A DNA stretch of 63,810 nt, counting the filler, from Globobulimina sp. (taxonomy: Eukaryota): NCBI GenBank assembly GCA_003354225.1. It is 48 parts of 48 records of this genome, joined end to end, with 100 filler letters (N's around TTAATTAATTAA, not from the genome) between each part and the next. Parts side by side here need not be neighbours in the genome. Positions count along the whole stretch, not along the records: positions 23,986 to 25,217 come from PIVH01020473.1; 47 more parts are not named here. The stretch is one strand, 5' to 3'. Below, one piece after another: positions 15,994 to 60,572 of the stretch. Both the position numbers and the translations under genes were made by a program. Position 1 is the stretch's first letter. Every line of letters begins with the position of its first letter. The notes under the pieces are model-generated. The model was not told the origin of the DNA. It did no database searches and was given only the letters and a program-made list of their open reading frames with translations.

Positions 15994-17225
15994 ATGTTTA
16001 TGAATACAAAAAAAGTTAATATCAATTCAGATTATAACATAATGAATGAAAATGAAGAAGAAAAACAAGAATCAATATCTCGATCGGATACAGCTTCAAC
16101 AACATTGGATATGCAGCACGATCAAATTGGATTTTGTTTTTGTGTGATTTGGAGATGTTTGACTGAAAAGAAAGACATTCAAAAACCTGGGAAATATGGA
16201 GAGCGGATATATTTACGACGCTTATTTTTAACGGTTGGAACATTATCCTTTGGCTACATTTCAATTAAAGATTTTCTCAATGTCTTAAATATAACGGTTA
16301 AGCAAATGGTGATCAATTTTTTGAATGAATTGAATGTTGGAGTGACATGGCCCGATGATGACGAAGGAGGCACATTATTTGATTCTACATTTCATGTTTA
16401 TAACGAAGCGAGAATTATTGCTGCGTCGTGTGCTTTGTGTGCAGCCATTTTGTTTGGAATGAGTCTGTTGTGCGACGTCTGTGTTATGGGAAAGCGTGGA
16501 TTGAAATTGTCGAAAATCTTCGGTTGGCTGAGTATGATTGCTTTAATGGCAGGAATCTTTACCCCCTCTTTACCGAATTATATATCTTCAACTCCAATAC
16601 ATGACATTTGTCCATTTTGTGCTCCTCAATTTACAAATGCTGTGTATTTGTTATTTGGCGATGTGATCGGTTTATTTTGCAGCGCTTTGTTTACCGTGGA
16701 TATGTTGCCAATATTGGTGGTTGCCGTGATTCCGGCAATTGCCAGGTCGTCATATATGGTTTTACATTCTTCACAAAAATATAAATTGGATTTGAATGAA
16801 GAGGATACATTGCGATACATCTTTATTTGTGGCAGTTTTTTAGGTCCATTCACAACATTTGCTCCGTTATTGGTGTATCAACAAACAATGGGCGATGTTG
16901 TGGTATCTTGCATTTTGATCATATTTTGGATATTGCCAATAATGATAGCCATCCAAATTAAAAGCAAGAATGCCACATTTATTTATTTATTATACATGTG
17001 TACATATTATGGATCATTGTCAGCAATCTTTGTTTATCATTGTATTCAATATGGTTTACCTCATTGGCTTATTCTCGTATTACAAACTCCAAATTGGACC
17101 ATCCATACCATCTTAGAAATTGCCGCTGAAGTCTGCTTAACAAATGTATTATTATCGGATTTTTTGTATACCATTATTATGGGATTTAGAACAAAACATA
17201 AAAATGAAAAGAAAAAAAGATTTTC
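15994..17225 (+). CDS. Multi-pass membrane protein of unknown function
   Basis: ORF spans the contig, about 9 TM segments, CPFC motif. Confidence 0.75.
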
Positions 17226-17326
17226 NNNNNNNNNNNNNNNNNNNNNNNNNNNNNNNNNNNNNNNNNNNNTTAATTAATTAANNNNNNNNNNNNNNNNNNN
17301 NNNNNNNNNNNNNNNNNNNNNNNNNT

Positions 17327-17686
17327 GTTAAATATTTTTATCCAAAGCTGGCTGTTCTCGATAATATAAATGAAAAAGGTGATGGAGTTATGGATGACTT
17401 ATTTGTCAATTTTAATTATCCACAATTTCCATATGATTTAGCAATGATAATATTGCAATTTGTATTTTTTAAACCAATGAATGGTTTAAAATCAGTATTG
17501 TTGTCTGGAAATTCATTACATCCGACATTTTCTGCTTGTTTTAGAAACACAGAGTTATTATCAAAAAATATGTTGCATAAAATATCTCTCACAAAATCAA
17601 GATATAACATTGATCCAAACGAAACAACAAATGCATCATCACTTACATTTGGCCACTCTGCTAAATTTGTTAAAACAATGTACTGA
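17327..17686 (+). CDS. C-terminal part of a hypothetical protein
   Basis: Open frame from contig start to TGA. Confidence 0.4.
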   Translation, partial: VKYFYPKLAVLDNINEKGDGVMDDLFVNFNYPQFPYDLAMIILQFVFFKPMNGLKSVLLSGNSLHPTFSACFRNTELLSKNMLHKISLTKSRYNIDPNETTNASSLTFGHSAKFVKTMY

Positions 17687-17775
17687 TAAAAGTGTAGTGT
17701 ATATCTCCAGTATAATATATCGTTATAATTTAAACGCTTTTTTACTTAAAAGCTTACTTCACTTCAAATCAGCTA

Positions 17776-18557
17776 ATGGCACTTTTAGTCAGTCTTCTGG
17801 CCTGGTTAATCATTATAACCTGGCCATGTGTATTGCTATTACTATACACAATGTTTCAAACAAAAGTTCGTTTTGTATTGCAAACACTTTTCATATTTCC
17901 AATAACAATCATAGTATCAAGCATCGTCGGTGTGATAGGATTAATTGTAAAATGTTTAACATTCTCCTTAATATCACCAGCCTTTCGCATATTTTTATTA
18001 TCCTATATATCGCAGCAATTCTGGCAATTTATGTTATTTTCCTTTGAATTCTGGCCAAATCTTAAGTTCGTGGTAAGCGACGAAAATGTAAATGATGATA
18101 TTTTTTATTTAAATTCGATACTTTTATACAATCATTGTCGATCCCCATTTGATTGGATATCGATCTGTTCCTTTGCTGATTATTTAGAACGGTTTCAAAA
18201 TTCATTTATTTTCATGAAAAAAGAGTTTGCGTATATTCCTATAATTGGATGGATTGGCTCTTTAAATTCAGCAAAGCCATTACAAAGAGATTGGAATGAG
18301 GACAAAAAATATATTAAAAGTTTATGTCAAAAATTTAAGCCAAACAAAGATTATCGTTTAGTTACGCCGTGGTGTTGGTTCTTTTATCCTGAAGGTTTGA
18401 CAAACGAAGCCATTAAAAAAACGTTTTTCGTTTTCATGCTAAGTGTTGCTTAAATGTCAGGGACTCGATTCAGTGCAAAGAAGCTGATGGCAGCACAGGA
18501 GTTTGCAAGGAAAAGAGGTTACGCAGTCTATAATCATTTGTTGCAACCCAGAGTCAA
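17776..18557 (+). CDS. Lysophospholipid acyltransferase (AGPAT3-5/LCLAT1-like), 3' partial; intron 18395-18460
   Basis: NH...DW, MKKEFAYIPIIGW, LQRDW; FYPEG|TRF restored by splicing. Confidence 0.9.
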
Positions 18558-23885: not shown

Positions 23886-23987
23886 NNNNNNNNNNNNNNN
23901 NNNNNNNNNNNNNNNNNNNNNNNNNNNNNTTAATTAATTAANNNNNNNNNNNNNNNNNNNNNNNNNNNNNNNNNNNNNNNNNNNNAA

Positions 23988-25049
23988 TATACATTACGAA
24001 ACTTAATTCAATATACAATTAATGAAGAGGAATATAAAGAAAAACACAATCTCGAATATACACGAATTGGCCAAGGCACAATTGTGTATGGACATAAACG
24101 CATTGAGGGATTCCAACATTTATTATGCACTCTAGCTGATTCAATTCGTCCAACTGATGATTATGGCAGATTTAGATTGCAATACAAAATTGGTATTCCT
24201 TTTTTTGGAATGAAGGGTTCATATATTATTCTTAAAAACAATGACATATATCAGTTATACGATGATGATAATGGCATTACATTTGATAACGGCATAGATA
24301 GTAGTGTGACTGAAGATGCGTATCTTGCATTATATGCTCGTTCCAAGGGTATAAAATTTAGTTTTGTTGATGGCAAAATGTATGAGAGAAGCACATTTCT
24401 AATACATGATTTTTGCAAACAGCGAAAGCGATGGATTACGGGGCTTTTAATGACATCATTTTCGAAACATTTACCATTTTATGTGCGAAAAGAATTATTA
24501 ATTACGGTATTATTATGGATGATACAGCCAATTTCATACTTTTTCATTGTATTTAATATGGTATATTATTATGAAGATATAAGTTCAATAATGTTTTTTT
24601 TATTAAATCCATTTGTTTTTTTATATATGTTTGGCTTTATTTTTAATTTTAGTATCAATGAATATAATATTTTCGAATACATATGTTTATTTTTCTTGCA
24701 AATTATATTATTACCGATATTTTCGTTAATGGAATTTTCAAGTGTTGTTATAGCAATTTTAAAACCGGATAAGGGTTTTTATATTGTCCAAAAAGAAATT
24801 AACCCAACAATACCAGAAAATAGTATTGATATAATTATTGATATTGATGATAGTGCTAGTGAAGATATTATCGAAGACGTTGTTGAATTGCAAATAGTTG
24901 ATGATAGTGGTGGTGAAGATATTATTGAAGATATTATTGAAATACAAATAATTAATGACAATAAATTATCAACCCCAAAGGGTTTTTTTGAGGAATTATT
25001 TAATAATACAAAATGGGCAGACGTAGATATTATACAAAATATTAGATAG
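23988..25049 (+). CDS. egh: Egghead/BRE-3-like GT2 beta-1,4-mannosyltransferase (5' partial)
   Basis: GQG-IVY, LADSIR-TDDYGRFRLQ, GMKGSY, SVTEDAY, ERS, DF-KQRKRW-TG, C-terminal TM helices, FYIVQK. Confidence 0.85.
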   Translation, partial: YTLRNLIQYTINEEEYKEKHNLEYTRIGQGTIVYGHKRIEGFQHLLCTLADSIRPTDDYGRFRLQYKIGIPFFGMKGSYIILKNNDIYQLYDDDNGITFDNGIDSSVTEDAYLALYARSKGIKFSFVDGKMYERSTFLIHDFCKQRKRWITGLLMTSFSKHLPFYVRKELLITVLLWMIQPISYFFIVFNMVYYYEDISSIMFFLLNPFVFLYMFGFIFNFSINEYNIFEYICLFFLQIILLPIFSLMEFSSVVIAILKPDKGFYIVQKEINPTIPENSIDIIIDIDDSASEDIIEDVVELQIVDDSGGEDIIEDIIEIQIINDNKLSTPKGFFEELFNNTKWADVDIIQNIR

Positions 25050-25142
25050 TTTATAGTTATATATTATATATAATTTTAAAATAAATAATTTGTGAAGAAA
25101 ATAAAATAAAATTTATTGTATATTTATTACTAAACAATAAAT

Positions 25143-25217
25143 ATGAAGTATAATTTCGAAACAGTATATGCAACGGTATTTAAAATGCTTAAAGAACGTG
25201 GATATAAAGTTAAATCC
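25143..25217 (+). CDS. RPB5: N-terminus of RNA polymerase Rpb5-like subunit, NCLDV-like
   Basis: MKYNFETVYATVFKMLKERGYKVKS matches the Rpb5 TxxxMxxDRGY motif; only 25 codons visible. Confidence 0.6.
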
Positions 25218-25318: not shown

Positions 25319-26293
25319 TAAGAAGAAGAAGACAGGGAATCCGAAGAAGAAGAAGACATTGAATCTGAAGAAGAAGTACATGCAAAAGCAAAAAGAAAGA
25401 AAAAACGCAAAAGCAAGTCAAGCAAAGTAAATGCAAAAGCTGTGGTGCCTTTGATGGCTGTTAACGATTTGTTTGGCGCTATGTCTGACACTGACAATAA
25501 AGCAGCGGATCCATTTTCAGGTGCAAGTTATGATCCATTTTCAAAAAATGATTTTGGTGCTAATATTAATGCACATACAACACAAACACATTCAAATGCA
25601 TTTATGAATATGGCCATTGGAAGTATGGACTGTATGGCACCAATGAGGTCTTTTGATTCTGCGGGTTTTGGTGCTGCACAAAATAATAATAATTTTAACG
25701 ATCCATTTGCAAGTTTCGGTACTGGCTTTGATGAGAAACAGCATAAAAAAATGGATAAATCGAGCATTTTATCCAAATATAAACCAAGCGGAAAGAAATC
25801 AGAGTCGGCGACGACTAGTACTGTGCCATGGGATCCTTTTGCAGATTTTGGATTGACTGCAGCGGCAGATACAAATAAAGAGGAATCTGATTTTTTTAAT
25901 GCGTTGGGATCAGTGACACAAATGAACGCTGTTAACAAACAACGAGATTTTGTAGCTTATGATAAGTATGGAATTAAAATTCTATTTAAATTTTTGGAAA
26001 ATTGGAAAAAAAATACGTTTAAAATATTGGCAGTGTTTGTGAATAATAATTCATTTGAAATTAATGATTTTTCATTTAAAATTGATGTGCCTAATTGGAT
26101 TAAATTGCATTTTAAATCAATAAATAATAAGCAGTTGTTACCATTTTCAAGAAATAAAATTGAACAACCATTTGAATTAACAAATACAATGTATCCACAA
26201 AAGGAATTTATAATGAAAATACAAATTAGTTTTAAACAGAATGGACAGCAAAAAACGTATACCGCTCAGGTGAGACTACCTAAAAGTAATTGA
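25319..26293 (+). CDS. Trafficking adaptor with DPF motifs and C-terminal gamma-adaptin ear (GAE) domain (5' partial)
   Basis: Four DPF motifs; AYDKYGIKI-F, F-N...INDFSF-IDVP..IKL, IEQ, MKIQISF. Confidence 0.75.
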
Positions 26294-27981: not shown

Positions 27982-28655
27982 GAGGAAAAATTTTTTCTTG
28001 GATAATAATTAACTTTTAATGATGGGCTCATGTATGTAGTAAATCCGGCTTTTTCCAAACGATAATTTAACTCTACATCTTCACAAGCATCAAAACTTTC
28101 ATCATATTTTCCAATAGTTTTAAAAATATGTTTTCGGTAAACAGCACCAAGGCTTACTGGAGAGACAAAGCCTTCATATTCAGAATAGATTAAAGAATTT
28201 GTTGCATGTCCAAATTTTGAATTTCGGACAATAGCAACAGCATTTTGGAATTTAGATATCCCAGGTGGATTTAATGGCTGTGGGCGACCTAAACAATCTG
28301 CCCCCGACGAAATAAAGCAATCGATAATATTCCTAATAAATTTATTTGACGGGATATAACAATGGCCATCGATCACAACAAAAATGTCTCCTTTAGAATT
28401 TGCCAAACCGATATTACGTCCAGCACTTGCTATTTTTTTGAGATTTGTAAAATAAAAAACATTAGAATATTTTTCTGCATAGCGTTTTGCTACTTCAGAC
28501 GTGCCGTCATTGCTACATCCATCGACAACAATAATTTCATAACGATCATTCGAATAATCTTGCATTAATAGTTGATCAAGCAGGGGGCGAATGTAGTTAC
28601 ACTCATTAAATACTGCTATGCAAATAGTAATAAACGGTATTTGAGTTTTTGTCAT
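27982..28655 (-). CDS. Bacterial GT2 glycosyltransferase (ExoA-like), 3' partial
   Basis: IAVFNE, VVDGCSNDGT, GRNIG, IDGH, G-YDESF-ACEDVELNYRL, YYPR; intronless. Confidence 0.9.
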
Positions 28656-28980
28656 GCAATCCATAAAAATGTGCGTATTCATATAAGTATTCAAGTCTAA
28701 AAAAAACAAGGCCATTTCCGCCCCTGCTTCACCACAGGTATGGCCTTATCTTGTAATCATATGATTTATTTTCGAACATTGTTTAGTGAATATGCACATC
28801 GTTTACTTAATGTCAAGAACGTTTTGTTCTATACATTAATATGTTATGAGCTATTTTTGTGGTTTCGTCAGCCTAATACAACCGGCCAAAGGAAAACGAC
28901 GCTGGTGATCTTTTCAGGAATAATCACAGGTGGCAATCCAGATTTTATGTTATAATCTTGAATATTCAGGCACTTAGAAA

Positions 28981-31679: not shown

Positions 31680-32102
31680 ATTCAATTCAATTTTAAATAA
31701 ATGGATCACTCGACAATTCGTCGATAAATTTTTCTGATTACAATTACTTTTGATCAAACATAAAGAATGATTTTTATAAACTAGGATAATTAATTTTCGA
31801 GTAGCTTGCAGTTTTTTTTTAGTTTACCAATACCGTGCCCACAGTTACCAATAACATTACCCATACAACATTGCCGNNNNNNNNNNNNNNNNNNNNNNNN
31901 NNNNNNNNNNNNNNNNNNNNTTAATTAATTAANNNNNNNNNNNNNNNNNNNNNNNNNNNNNNNNNNNNNNNNNNNNTAGGATAATCCCTTTTTTGAGATT
32001 TCTCTCTCTCATGTATATGAATGGTGCAAAGAAGAATGGTAAGAATAAGAAATAAAACCGAAGAATCGTAGCAAATCCAATTAAGAGACCATAAATAAAA
32101 AA

Positions 32103-32879
32103 TTGGATATATTAGCATATAAAGAGAATAAAATCAAAATTATTACATGGAATGTGGACGGCGGTATGAATGCAAAATCGATTAAAAATCCAAAAATATT
32201 CACATATATCAACGAAGTCCGACCGCATATATGCATGTTCCAAGAAACAGTCGGTTTTAAAAATTATAGAGGATATAAGATAGCGAAAGAAAGTGAATTT
32301 GCAGAATTGAATGGTATGACGCGTATTACAAACGACATAATTGGTATAACTGCGATTTATGTAAGCGATGATCTCGTGAATAATATCAGTTCTATCGATA
32401 TCCCGTATGATTTAAATGAAACTGAACCACAGAATAACATATATTCGTGTGCTGTGGTATTAAAATTAAATAAAATGTACAGAAACAGAGACAAAATTAT
32501 ATTATGTAATTGTTACCGATCACCAAATCCGAACGCAATAAAACTATCAAAAATTGGTATAATACACAGATTTATCGCTAATTATATGAGTGATACGGCG
32601 CCGACGATAATTATTGGTGGCGATTACAATATACGCTCACAGCAAATCGGTGCCATCGACAGATTACATGAACCGAGACCCAATATTTTGAAAAAATATA
32701 CTGATGGAGACCACCTTTTTAATGCAATGAATAAATTAGGAATTAAAAACATAAACAAATATGGACAAAAAACCAGATTTAAAGTAAATAAAAATGGTAT
32801 AATCAAAGAAGCAATAATTGATACAATATGGACAAATATCAATAAAAACGGACGAATACAAATAAGAAATAATTTTTGA
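32103..32879 (+). mobile_element. Non-LTR retrotransposon (LINE) AP-endonuclease domain, truncated
   Basis: ITWNVDG, FQET, YRSP, GGDYN, IIDTIW; terminal SDH motif and RT are absent. Confidence 0.8.
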
Positions 32880-33307: not shown

Positions 33308-34538
33308 GTGCAAGTGCGAATCAATTACGGGAATTTTTCTGTTTAATATTGGTACATAATACGCCTACCAATTCGAAGAACATATGGGATAAACATAAAA
33401 ATAAACTTATGGATGACAGTGAATTTTATAGAAACGGTGAGATGGATAAAGCAGAAAATTTAGCCTTATTAAAAATACAAAGCATATTAGAAACGCATAG
33501 ATGCACTATGGAACAATTTTTATTACCTGTACCCGTTCCGGATGAAGTATATATTAGTAATATACCGATAGATTTATTAGCAGAAATAGATTATGATAGA
33601 AGGGACTGTGAAAAAAAATGGAAATTAGCATATGAAAAGATAAAAAGAAATAGAAAACAAAAAGAGATATTTGATGAGATTACAGGTTTAATTGATTCAG
33701 GGAACCCAATCGGCAAATATTTCTTTGTTGATGGACCAGGCGGTACCGGTAAAACACTATTATTTAATGCCTTACTTAGTTATGTACGATCAAAACAACC
33801 AGCAGCTAATGGTGATAGACATATCGCTGTGGCATGTGCAGCCTCTGGTATCGCTGCATTATTATTAGCAGGTGGTAGAACAGCACATAATAGATATGGT
33901 TTAGGTGTTGAAATTGGTCCGACAACATCCTGTCAATATAATATATATAGAAACTGTGCAAGGACACAAATATTAAAACGTGCAGAGATTATTATTTGGG
34001 ACGAAGCGACCATGTCTTCGAAATATATGTTACAAGCTGTGGATAGATGTTTACGTGATATTATGAACAACGATAAAGTGTTTGGTGGCAAATTAGTGGT
34101 ATTCGGTGGTGATTTTCGACAAACATTAAGTGTGGTAGAAGGTGGTAATAGAGCGCAAGAAATTGATATGTGTATTAAAAGTTCCCCTTTTTGGAATGAT
34201 ATTTATATCAGAAAACTTACTGAGAATATGAGAGTAAAAAGTAACGAAAACGAACATAACAGAGAAAGATTAGAATTTTGGGGTAATTTTTTATTATCTG
34301 TTGGTAATGGCGAAGAAGGTGTGGAAGATGAGATTCAAGAAGAATTTAAATGTGGCGATCACAATATAATTAAATTACCAAGAAATATCATATCCAAATC
34401 AAGAACAGCTGAAGGATTAATTGAAGAAATATATCCGAATTTAGAACATGAATTAAATGATGATGATATTGAAAGGAGTGCAATATTAACCCCATTAAAT
34501 AAAGATGTAGATACATTAAATGAACTTGCGATGGCACG
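33308..34538 (+). mobile_element. Helitron Rep/Helicase, PIF1 helicase region, partial
   Basis: FVDGPGGTGKT, AASGIAALLL-GGRTAH, IIWDEATM, FGGK-VVFGGDFRQ, LTENMRV, AILTPLNKDV. Confidence 0.93.
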
Positions 34539-43955: not shown

Positions 43956-45186
43956 TCCCAATTATCCCTGCTTAGCGGGTGGAATCGAGCGTAGTGTACA
44001 GCCAAATAATACGGCAAGAAATGCCGCTTCGAATTTGAGGAATCCCAATCATGCAATGCATGTTCAGAGCACTTTGATTGAAAATCAGAGGGCTTCAAAT
44101 AACACCACAAATCAACAACCATATGAATACCCTCCAGTACGACCGTCAGTATTAACACAAAGAGGACCCAATCAAGGACCTCATGTTACTGAACCAGTAC
44201 CAAGATATCCGTGGGATCCTGATTTTGATCCTGAGCAAGATATCAATCCAATAACGGGTATTAATCAAGTTACAACAACACAAGGTTTGACCCCTCAACC
44301 TGACCAATCTGAGCGGGTACCGCAAAGTTATAATTTGGGTGGGGAGGGTTCTAATTCTATTTGCCCCTGGACACAACCACCTAACTACCAATATTTGGGT
44401 CCTAGTCGATCGCCACCATACTATCCGGAGGCACAAGGACCCAACGGAACAGAACATAGTTCACAAGGATATCCGTCTGGTCGGGGACCGGCTGCTCCAT
44501 CCACTTCTGTACCACCTACACAGTTTGGACGCATGCCTTCCTACCGTATTCCAGCGGACCCTTTGAACCCAAATGGTGTACAACCGTTAGCTGATATAAA
44601 TGCTGCTGCAGATCAGCTCAGACAAAACGCCAACGTTTTTCAGCGCATACCACCCATCTCTGAATTGGACCATGGGCCAAAGGTGAGTGTAAAATGCAAG
44701 GACTACACCACTGCTCAAGACATCGAACAGTGGTTTGTACAGTTCGAAGTGTACTTGTGTATGATTCGATGTCGAACTGAATACGATCGAGTCACTAACT
44801 TGCATCATTACATGGCCAATCACAATTATGCATTTCTGCAAACCTTGTCCCCACATGTCCAAAATAACTACCAATTGTTCAAAGCTGCTTTATTGCGCCG
44901 TTTCCGTGAACGTGGCGATGATCGTGACAAATTACGACGAGCTATGGAAATCAAGCAATCTCTGAGTAATGATGAGACGGTTGACACCTATTATGAACGT
45001 TATGAACATGCTTTAGCAAAAGCCTTGCCAAAACAAGACATTGCTACTAGTCGTGTGTGGATCACTGTCTTTGAAACCAATTTACGACCAGACATCTATG
45101 CTAAATATAGAGATCGAGCTGGTGGTACAACTATAGAAACATTCGAACAGGACAGAGATTTGGCTGTTGACTGTGAACAACTTTTG
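43956..45186 (+). mobile_element. LTR retrotransposon (Ty3/gypsy-like) Gag, partial
   Basis: Pro-rich N-terminus; DIEQWF-QFE, NYQLFKAALLRRF, KQ...ETVDTYYERY, F-TNLRPDI. Confidence 0.82.
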
Positions 45187-48934: not shown

Positions 48935-49021
48935 GCGCGGATGATCCTCACTGGTGTGGTGTGCAGACTTCAAATCTGTAGGTGTATAACAACACAGTGG
49001 TTCGATTCCACCTTCTGCGCG
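48935..49021 (+). tRNA. tRNA-Sec: tRNA-Sec (anticodon TCA), eukaryotic 9/4 type, 87 nt
   Basis: 9-bp acceptor, extended D stem, TGCAGA-CTTCAAA-TCTGTA anticodon arm, long variable arm, 4-bp T stem GTGG-TTCGATT-CCAC, G73; closely resembles vertebrate tRNA-Sec. Confidence 0.95.
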
Positions 49022-58845: not shown

Positions 58846-59820
<975 letters not shown>

Positions 59821-59943: not shown

Positions 59944-60495
59944 CTAGGGTTTAATATATATCGTAGTGGTGTTATGATCAATTCCAGTTTGTAATGTGGT
60001 GGATGACTCATCATTATACTCTGCAGTTATTTTGCCAGCGTTCCAATATAGTTTTAATAACTGAGTCGATAATCCTTTAACTTGTTGAACAATGGTTCGG
60101 GTCGCTGTTATATTGGAATCAATGCGATAGGTTCCATTCAAAAGATAAGTTCCATCCGTATGGACATCCCAATTATATTTAGATGAAGAGCTTGGATCGC
60201 ATTCTTGTCTTAATTCACTGCGTGGATAATGTGAGTTTGCTGTGGTACATTTTCCAGCATAGATCATAAATGTCATTGAACCATCTTTTTTATCTGTATA
60301 AAAATAGGGACTTTCAAATCCATTCTCCAATGATGAAGTTGATATTGTTCCACATGTTGTGTATGATGGTGGTTCTGGTGACTGTAAATTCCAATGCGAT
60401 AAATCAAAATTTTTGTTTGGAGGAACATTTGGATTTAAGCTTAATGTCATAAACACATGGAAGATTGCAACGATCATAAACATTTTATAATACAT
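59944..60495 (-). CDS. Polysaccharide lyase family 7 (alginate-lyase-like), secreted; C-terminus not seen
   Basis: Signal peptide, NFDLSHWNLQ-P, PYFYT, TTANS-YPRSELR, QQVKG, LLKLYW. Confidence 0.8.
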   Translation of the reverse strand: MYYKMFMIVAIFHVFMTLSLNPNVPPNKNFDLSHWNLQSPEPPSYTTCGTISTSSLENGFESPYFYTDKKDGSMTFMIYAGKCTTANSHYPRSELRQECDPSSSSKYNWDVHTDGTYLLNGTYRIDSNITATRTIVQQVKGLSTQLLKLYWNAGKITAEYNDESSTTLQTGIDHNTTTIYIKP

Positions 60496-60572
60496 TTCGA
60501 GCTATTTGATGGTATGTCTTGTTGAACTCCAGTAAAAATCTTTAAAAAACCTTAACAAATACTTTAAAAAAC

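Follow-up and report, generated by a model that had tools for sequence, protein, structure and literature searches.

Does a short, very AT-rich contig in the genome assembly of Globobulimina sp. (GCA_003354225.1) carry ordinary genes of its protist host, or is it a fragment of a giant virus? The contig (PIVH01020473.1) occupies positions 23986–25217 of a 63,810-base stretch of DNA, hereafter referred to as the window, and is laid out as two open reading frames (ORFs) on the same strand and 93 bp apart. The upstream one encodes the C-terminal part of a membrane glycosyltransferase of family 2 (GT2) that belongs to the same broad family as the animal mannosyltransferase Egghead (egh), and the downstream one is very probably the start of a gene for the RNA polymerase subunit Rpb5. 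Analysis of both genes, of their relatives and of the rest of the window leads us to favour, on balance, a giant virus (Nucleocytoviricota), free or integrated, as the source of this DNA.

The window consists of 48 separate contigs of 1,230–1,233 bp, ordered by length from 1,233 down to 1,230, with a linker of 44 N, TTAATTAATTAA and a further 44 N between each pair. Because these linkers are artificial and neighbouring contigs are unrelated, the flanks of the contig under study, which is the nineteenth of the window, are uninformative, and any finding that rests on adjacency across a linker is void. The contig (1,232 bp, + strand) has a linker on either side, so that both of its ends are assembly ends, and its GC content of 26% is the lowest among the 48 contigs (range 0.26–0.445). 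Among public sequencing runs, one gives a weak match to it, with 0.18 of the sampled words, and two further runs of the same sample contain next to none of its words. No RNA run with the contig was listed in this word search.

An Egghead-family glycosyltransferase

The first reading frame (ORF1, protein P0001) is open at its 5′ end and runs for 353 codons on the + strand (23988–25046), followed by a TAG stop codon at 25047–25049, which brings the whole feature to 23988–25049. Residues 42 to 214 match the Pfam family PF13632 (Glyco_trans_2_3) with an E value of 4.5e-15 and a score of 56.4 bits, well above the cut-off of 27. Among 1.84 billion cluster representatives searched, 541 relatives were found at E ≤ 1e-3, 91 of them at E ≤ 1e-30. 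Animal egh proteins match ORF1 over about 245 residues with 31–37% identity and E values from 1.9e-35 to 5.9e-27. They include the homologue from the mussel Potamilus (P0119, 1.9e-35), the egh-like protein of Haliotis (P0147, 1.7e-31), the homologue from the nematode Mesorhabditis (P0189, 4.0e-28) and the egh cluster of the oyster Magallana gigas (P0207, 5.9e-27). NCBI names the matched Haliotis and Magallana proteins beta-1,4-mannosyltransferase egh or egh-like, and in a word-indexed search the JGI label 'egghead protein' is attached to 18 of 64 ORF1 matches. The description of this gene as an egh-like, AT-rich GT2 in the initial annotation is therefore borne out. The protein atlas gave just generic bacterial GT2 clusters for ORF1, at 0.94.

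Alignment with relatives shows that ORF1 starts just past their HLDEE block, and about 190 N-terminal residues are absent from it because the fragment begins at this point. Two further motifs are present. In the TED motif (residues 108 to 110, positions 24309–24317) the E and the D are invariant in all 43 aligned relatives, and in the QRKRW motif (residues 145 to 149, positions 24420–24434), which fits the signature Q(R/K)xRW known from membrane GT2 synthases, the Q, both R and the W are invariant in the 43 aligned sequences; animal egh is included in both cases. An insertion of 7 residues (87 to 93) is also seen in ORF1. The C-terminal part, judged from hydropathy and from the model of a relative described below, contains a hydrophobic block of three to four membrane helices (residues ~169 to 259, positions 24492–24764), after which comes an acidic tail of 83 residues, 22 of them D or E (24798–25046), with two 15-residue repeats at 24861–24905 and 24915–24959. 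This tail is without counterpart in the bacterial relatives; P0003, the closest full-length relative, has an acidic tail at the same position. On the evidence of its sequence, ORF1 is a member of an Egghead-like family in which the catalytic motifs, as assigned by homology, are conserved.

In the PDB, ORF1 has a sequence match to the cellulose synthase BcsA (E 2e-4, residues 105 to 210). The predicted structure of P0003 (predicted local distance difference test, pLDDT, 89.4; predicted TM-score, pTM, 0.84) comprises a GT-A domain that is preceded by four N-terminal helices and followed by a C-terminal helix bundle (352 to 450) and a helical tail. Its best Foldseek matches are BcsA, the hyaluronan synthases of a Chlorella virus and of Xenopus, and chitin synthases (E 1.5e-10 to 3e-7), which indicates that the enzyme acts at the membrane face, as these inverting GT2s do. 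BcsA, the Chlorella-virus hyaluronan synthase, Xenopus HAS1 and yeast Chs1 have the same architecture as the model, with helix bundles on the N- and C-terminal sides of a GT-A domain and with TED and QxxRW motifs. The query-normalised TM-scores are 0.36–0.50, however, and identity is just 11–14%. These enzymes are also processive polymer synthases, whereas the characterised member of the Egghead family transfers a single sugar. A further difference on the side of the window protein is the lack of PilZ or other accessory domains.

Position of the window protein in the family

Relationships were examined with a FastTree phylogeny of 285 rows and a more careful IQ-TREE phylogeny of 48 rows (LG+C20 PMSF, support given as ultrafast bootstrap/SH-aLRT). 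In the latter, the window protein forms one clade with P0003/P0068, P0004 and P0005 (100/99), of which it is the first branch, and the FastTree phylogeny recovers the same group of 6. The other members of this unnamed metagenome clade (P0003/P0067/P0068, P0004 and P0005) are 45–50% identical to the window protein over 77–92% of the fragment, the nearest ones 47–50%. P0004 and P0005 are encoded on contigs of 8.9 kb and 132 kb, respectively. A protein of a metagenome-assembled genome labelled 'Magnetococcales' (P0016) lies near the clade, and a search of genome contigs for it gave no match. Animal egh proteins form a clade of their own (100/96), whose sister group consists of protist sequences, Siedleckia among them, and a 99/98 branch splits these two from everything else, the window clade lying outside. 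Another clade (100/99) holds the long forms from algae and protists (Mesostigma, Eucheuma, Cymbomonas and Diplonema) and is adjacent to a large group of bacterial sequences. In prokaryote genomes, 124 relatives were found at 28–40% identity, mostly from Chloroflexota and Actinomycetota, with one archaeon (Nitrosotalea).

The window protein and animal Egghead/BRE-3 have in common PF13632 and the invariant residues, TED and Q-R-x-R-W included. They are also of one size class, animal Egghead being 441–482 amino acids long and the members of the window protein's clade 458–520. They differ in that the window protein stands in a separate clade and has the 7-residue insertion and the acidic repeat tail. 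The product of Egghead is mannosyl-glucosylceramide. The initial annotation had proposed an arthro-series-type glycolipid enzyme and had named a phylogeny of the protein as a check. The GT2 phylogeny does not support that proposal, placing the window protein outside the animal Egghead clade and with the unnamed metagenome clade, and orthology with animal Egghead is ruled out by the 99/98 branch between the clades. Since ORF1 is not an orthologue, a transfer of mannose from GDP-mannose to glucosylceramide, and with it an arthro-series specificity, is only an analogy for this protein. A published source on the glycolipid mannosyl-glucosylceramide itself is PMC6202054.

The downstream gene

An intergenic spacer of 93 bp with 7.5% GC (25050–25142) separates the two genes. 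The second reading frame (ORF2, protein P0002) begins with an ATG at 25143 and consists of 25 codons on the + strand (25143–25217) before it is cut by the contig end, past which a C-terminal domain (PF01191) would lie. Its sole Pfam family match is Rpb5_N (PF03871), with 17.1 bits (cut-off 27) and an E value of 0.0088 from the 25 residues available. Residues 8 to 24 align to positions 10 to 26 of the 89 in the profile, collinear with the domain start. The initial annotation had described this Rpb5 as starting without the usual N-terminal segment of cellular proteins; the start of ORF2 lines up with that of Rpb5_N, so that the segment is diverged in sequence and not deleted.

A sub-cut-off score of this kind is also found in a true Rpb5. 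A contig named as giant-virus metagenome-assembled genome (GVMAG), L216, encodes an Rpb5 with an Rpb5_C match of 2.5e-17, and its own Rpb5_N match reaches just 21.2 bits, likewise below the cut-off. Searching with the L216 protein gave 40 matches (P0229–P0268, the query's own sequence included), and from the first 60 residues two hidden Markov models (HMMs) were built, a full one of 39 sequences and a diverged one of 7 diverged members, none of them with the exact motif. On these HMMs, whose family was reached via a motif taken from the ORF2 peptide itself, ORF2 scores 23.6 bits (full) and 20.0 bits (diverged), in each case second to true Rpb5. Of 6,952 background 25-mers, taken from N-termini in the loci and in the window, the best reaches 13.0 and 9.6 bits, respectively, and the best of 2,000 shuffles reaches 9.7 and 10.1 bits. 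Because its scores exceed those of all background N-termini and all shuffles, we accept ORF2 as the start of an Rpb5 (RPABC1-like) gene, an identification that we hold with considerable confidence on these sequence comparisons, although 25 residues are too few to separate viral from cellular Rpb5. The arrangement noted in the initial annotation, a 93-bp spacer followed by an Rpb5-like start, is thus upheld.

ORF2 and the giant-virus Rpb5 proteins (L216 and P0229–P0268) share an N-terminal helix followed by ...(M/I)L(K/E)(E/D)R(G/N)(Y/F)x(V/I). The motif starts at residue 15 in ORF2 as compared with residues 10 to 24 in the native starts of the relatives (37 in the N-terminally extended P0239), and the giant-virus proteins are 201–224 amino acids long, whereas ORF2 is known from 25 residues. 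A short AT-rich spacer lies upstream of Rpb5 both in L216, where the gaps around the gene are 85 and 27 bp by ORF coordinates, and in our contig. The gene upstream of Rpb5 in L216 is, by eye, what we take to be an ERCC4/Mus81-like ORF and not a GT2. A search with the ORF2 25-mer by tblastn against 109 viral and metagenome loci gave noise only. Rpb5 families found no match in three giant-virus records, the C-terminal domain family matching archaeal control genomes only.

Genomic surroundings of the closest relative

Within the unnamed clade, genomic surroundings were examined for P0003 alone, which lies on two overlapping contigs, L001 (5.7 kb) and L002 (4.3 kb). Their GC contents are 24% and 23%, as against 36%–72% in the other 27 metagenome loci. 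ORFs on both strands cover 89% of them, and the genes are intronless and tightly packed. The neighbours of P0003 encode a RING-H2 protein, a Ulp1-type cysteine protease, a protein with LNR and PT repeats, a weak GT10-like match and a phosphatidylserine decarboxylase. For the protease of L001, 141 of 190 pattern matches in IMG/VR were confirmed by tblastn as relatives, and 21 of the 80 relatives kept are on contigs named GVMAG, at 34–56% identity. The closest of the protease-relative contigs (L110, 20.5% GC) encodes a Pox_A32-type ATPase above the Pfam cut-off. The AT-richness and gene density of L001/L002, the presence of protease relatives on giant-virus contigs and the Pox_A32 gene of L110 together indicate that L001/L002 are giant-virus-like.

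The gene downstream of the GT2 is the RING-H2 gene in L001 and Rpb5 in our contig, so gene order differs between the two, and adjacency of GT2 and Rpb5 was found in neither L001 nor L216. When the window contigs were compared by tblastx with 1.12 Mb of giant-virus loci, our contig alone matched, barring a generic RING match of contig 39.

A GVMAG contig of IMG/VR (L112) is of interest in its own right. It carries an intein-bearing ribonucleotide reductase (5062–9759) and an isocitrate lyase (10920–12386), adjoining a full-length homologue of the autophagy scramblase ATG9 (16594–18387, + strand, 5e-145).

Origin of the contig

The clade shared with L001, an Rpb5 gene on the same strand 93 bp downstream, the AT-rich spacer and the lowest GC content in the window are the reasons for which we favour a giant-virus origin. 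The proposal of a giant-virus contig in the initial annotation is supported to this extent, in that the closest relative of its GT2 lies on giant-virus-like DNA.

Several observations weigh against such an origin. The contig carries no hallmark gene (capsid, PolB, A32, VLTF3 or D5 helicase-primase), and none turned up among 40 ORFs that represent 38 of the 47 other contigs; capsid, PolB and A32 are the genes that the initial annotation had suggested looking for. A comparison of composition did not separate the contig from its host either. The GC content at third codon positions (GC3) of ORF1, 0.20, is the lowest of the 40 ORFs, yet at z = -1.75 against a host value of 0.31 ± 0.06 it is just marginally below the host, and it is twice that of the L001 GT2 (0.10). 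Composition was consequently rejected as a discriminator between virus and host. The family is widespread in bacteria, as the 124 genome matches show, and in algae and other protists. In viral catalogues, scans of IMG/VR with the window protein, alignment A1 and P0005 found no relative of the GT2, 81 giant-virus loci contain none, and the GT10-like and phosphatidylserine decarboxylase genes of L001/L002 are without match in IMG/VR. The best viral look-alikes of the GT2 in BFVD, which are ESV-1-84 and GT2s or chitin synthases of Yasminevirus, Edafosvirus and Terrestrivirus, resemble it in their membrane GT2 fold (E 1e-11 to 1e-8, TM-score 0.42–0.54). They are only 12–14% identical to the query and therefore belong to other GT2 subfamilies, and no Egghead-like member is present among these matches. 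Finally, the clade owes its viral label to a single gene on a single pair of contigs, L001/L002.

Two further points on this side concern the spacer and an octamer. The spacer contains two 9-bp AT hairpins. The one noted in the initial annotation is indeed present at 25055–25075, beginning 5 nt past the stop codon, with a 9-bp stem that includes one G-U pair and a 3-nt loop. As a signal it is at chance level: its folding z is -0.19, with 80 of 200 shuffles folding equally well or better, and when the spacer was shuffled 5,000 times with its dinucleotides preserved, 1,256 of the shuffles (25%) had at least one such hairpin. The second hairpin lies at 25120–25144; two or more are found in 139 of the 5,000 shuffles (2.8%), which is mildly unusual, and the whole window holds 20 hairpins of this class. 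A mimivirus-type terminator was rejected on these grounds, and the hairpin after the stop codon is uninformative. The octamer AAAATTGA, which is the early-promoter motif of mimivirus, does not occur in the contig. It occurs 13 times in the window against 17.3 expected and 3 times in L001 against 2.2 expected, which is no enrichment. Two of the L001 copies (2317–2324 and 3939–3946) precede the start codons of the GT2 and RING genes, by 50 and 41 nt, respectively.

It is possible, though unlikely in our estimation, that the two genes belong to the normal nuclear genome of the protist host, as its own Egghead-family GT2, perhaps anciently acquired, and a cellular Rpb5/RPABC1 in a compact region. 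A composition within the host range agrees with this (an ORF on another contig has a GC3 of 0.208), as do intron-free stretches of at least 400 codons in 8 other contigs, Egghead-like GT2s being known in diverse algae and protists, and the lack of viral hallmarks elsewhere in the window and of the GT2 in IMG/VR. ORF2 also obtains its 17.1 bits on Rpb5_N over 17 residues, as compared with 21.2 bits over 55 for the GVMAG Rpb5; cellular sequences make up most of what the Pfam profile was built from. However, the GT2 falls outside the algal and protist clade and inside that of L001, each with 100/99 support, and the L001 protease has relatives on giant-virus contigs. The stop-to-ATG gap of 93 bp is moreover the tightest seen in the window, where, for example, the stop at 26293 is followed by over 250 bp of non-coding sequence, and no other contig is as low in GC. 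That the contig is foreign to host and virus alike, as a contaminant from another AT-rich organism or a chimera of two unrelated reads, we consider highly improbable. In favour of this reading, the contig is a 1.2-kb orphan from the shortest-contig bin, part of it is present in just one public run, and bacterial-looking genes do occur in the window (a PF00535 GT2 at 27984–28745 and an alginate lyase at 59947–60501). An Rpb5 N-terminal domain nevertheless excludes a bacterial source, and the test with the C-terminal family matched archaeal controls only; archaeal RpoH is not known to have the N-terminal domain. The two ORFs are also alike in strand and composition, and the AT spacer between them is clean, with no visible joint.

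A further alternative concerns ORF2 alone, which might be the N-terminus of a protein with a PD-(D/E)xK-like restriction-endonuclease fold, or of some other protein with a helix followed by ...LKERGYxV. The Pfam score below cut-off leaves room for this, and so does a phmmer search of the 25-mer against the PDB, in which none of the 6 matches is an Rpb5 and the best natural ones are archaeal tRNA-splicing endonucleases (E 0.3). The pattern M-[L/F]-K-[D/E]-[R/S]-G-Y-x-V is found at 28 places in IMG/VR, 27 of them in phage-type contigs and 1 in a GVMAG contig (L216), so that 27 of the 28 exact matches are outside Rpb5 genes, several of them near the N-termini of phage ORFs. Those motif-bearing phage N-termini score only 7.9–13.0 bits on the Rpb5 HMMs, however, where ORF2 scores 20.0–23.6, and for ORF2 Pfam gives Rpb5_N alone, collinear with the domain start, whereas the two phage ORFs tested match zero Pfam families. 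We therefore regard this alternative as quite improbable. As a separate observation, phage ORFs of IMG/VR (L192 at 5704–6396, L199 and L204) start with a helix and ...(L/F)K(E/D)RGYxV and have no Pfam family; judged from sequence likeness, phage N-termini, Rpb5 N-termini and tRNA-splicing endonucleases may share an endonuclease-like fold.

Predicted role of the two genes

If the contig does derive from a giant virus, it would be AT-rich, mimivirid-like DNA that was either co-sequenced with, or integrated into the genome of, an AT-rich, intron-bearing protist. The first gene would represent the last two-thirds of a membrane-integrated, inverting GT2 of about 520–550 amino acids when whole. By homology, the complete protein is predicted to begin with membrane helices and to end in a C-terminal helix bundle and the acidic repeat tail, and the cytosolic GT-A domain in between would contain TED, QRKRW and, in the part missing from the contig, HLDEE. 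Such an enzyme would take up a nucleotide sugar at the cytosolic side of the membrane and attach a single beta-linked sugar to an acceptor anchored in it; by analogy with Egghead, donor and acceptor could be GDP-mannose and glucosylceramide, respectively. The outcome would be a remodelling of glycolipids, either in the infected cell or in the membrane of the virion. The second gene would be the start of the virus's own Rpb5 RNA polymerase subunit.

Other genes of the window

The 40 ORFs from the other contigs are all cellular or transposon genes. The former include genes for fibrillarin, Rpc34, a GGA/adaptin ear protein, Aha1, a PPR protein, a CaMK-PH kinase and glutamate dehydrogenase, and the latter a LINE endonuclease, a PIF1 helicase and a Ty3 capsid. 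Transposon fragments are located at 5333–6379 (reverse-transcriptase-like, no Pfam match), 32085–32876 (LINE-type endonuclease), 33310–34536 (PIF1/Helitron-type helicase, 3.2e-61) and 43957–45186 (Ty3-like capsid). A gene for tRNA-Sec lies at 48935–49020 on the + strand (Rfam RF01852, 73.3 bits), and the source organism therefore probably uses selenoproteins. In the NADP-type glutamate dehydrogenase (58846–59820, + strand), the Pfam match is split by an in-frame insert of 18 codons. This insert of ~54 nt resembles a short unspliced intron and so points to small introns in the host. The bacterial-looking genes, a PF00535/PF13641 GT2 (27984–28745, − strand) and a PF08787 alginate lyase (59947–60501, − strand), are on contigs of their own and may be horizontal transfers or contaminants. 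The kinase of contig 8 has unnamed relatives at 73–82% identity, and its best named ones, at 42–50%, are found in Reticulomyxa, a metagenome-assembled genome of Cercozoa, oomycetes and ochrophytes. These relatives point weakly, by sequence likeness, to a host of the stramenopile–alveolate–rhizarian (SAR) type.

Implications

Giant viruses carry membrane GT2s such as hyaluronan, chitin and cellulose-like synthases, and some of them rewire host sphingolipids. In our literature search, no paper joined 'egghead' with 'giant virus' or 'Nucleocytoviricota', and none joined 'egghead' with 'mannosyltransferase' and 'horizontal gene transfer'. Because the evidence consists of a 1.2-kb fragment and one informative relative, what is presented here is a lead and not a result.

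If a giant virus does encode an Egghead-family enzyme, it would have a novel means of editing host or virion glycolipids. We can go further and picture an uncatalogued giant-virus lineage with its own Egghead-type glycosyltransferase, to which the virus of our contig (as the deepest branch) and that of L001/L002 would belong and in which the enzyme would glycosylate glucosylceramide-like lipids of the host; taken as a whole, this picture is unlikely, and it is offered as speculation. Coccolithoviruses remodel the sphingolipids of their hosts, and a lineage of this kind, if it exists, would add a step at the glycolipid head group to such remodelling. The copy in our contig would then mark a virus that infects, or is integrated in, an AT-rich protist of the SAR type. 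The Egghead family itself extends far beyond animals, to large bacterial groups (Chloroflexota and Actinomycetota), to algae and protists and to a virus-like clade, and this breadth bears on the origin of the arthro-series pathway of animals.

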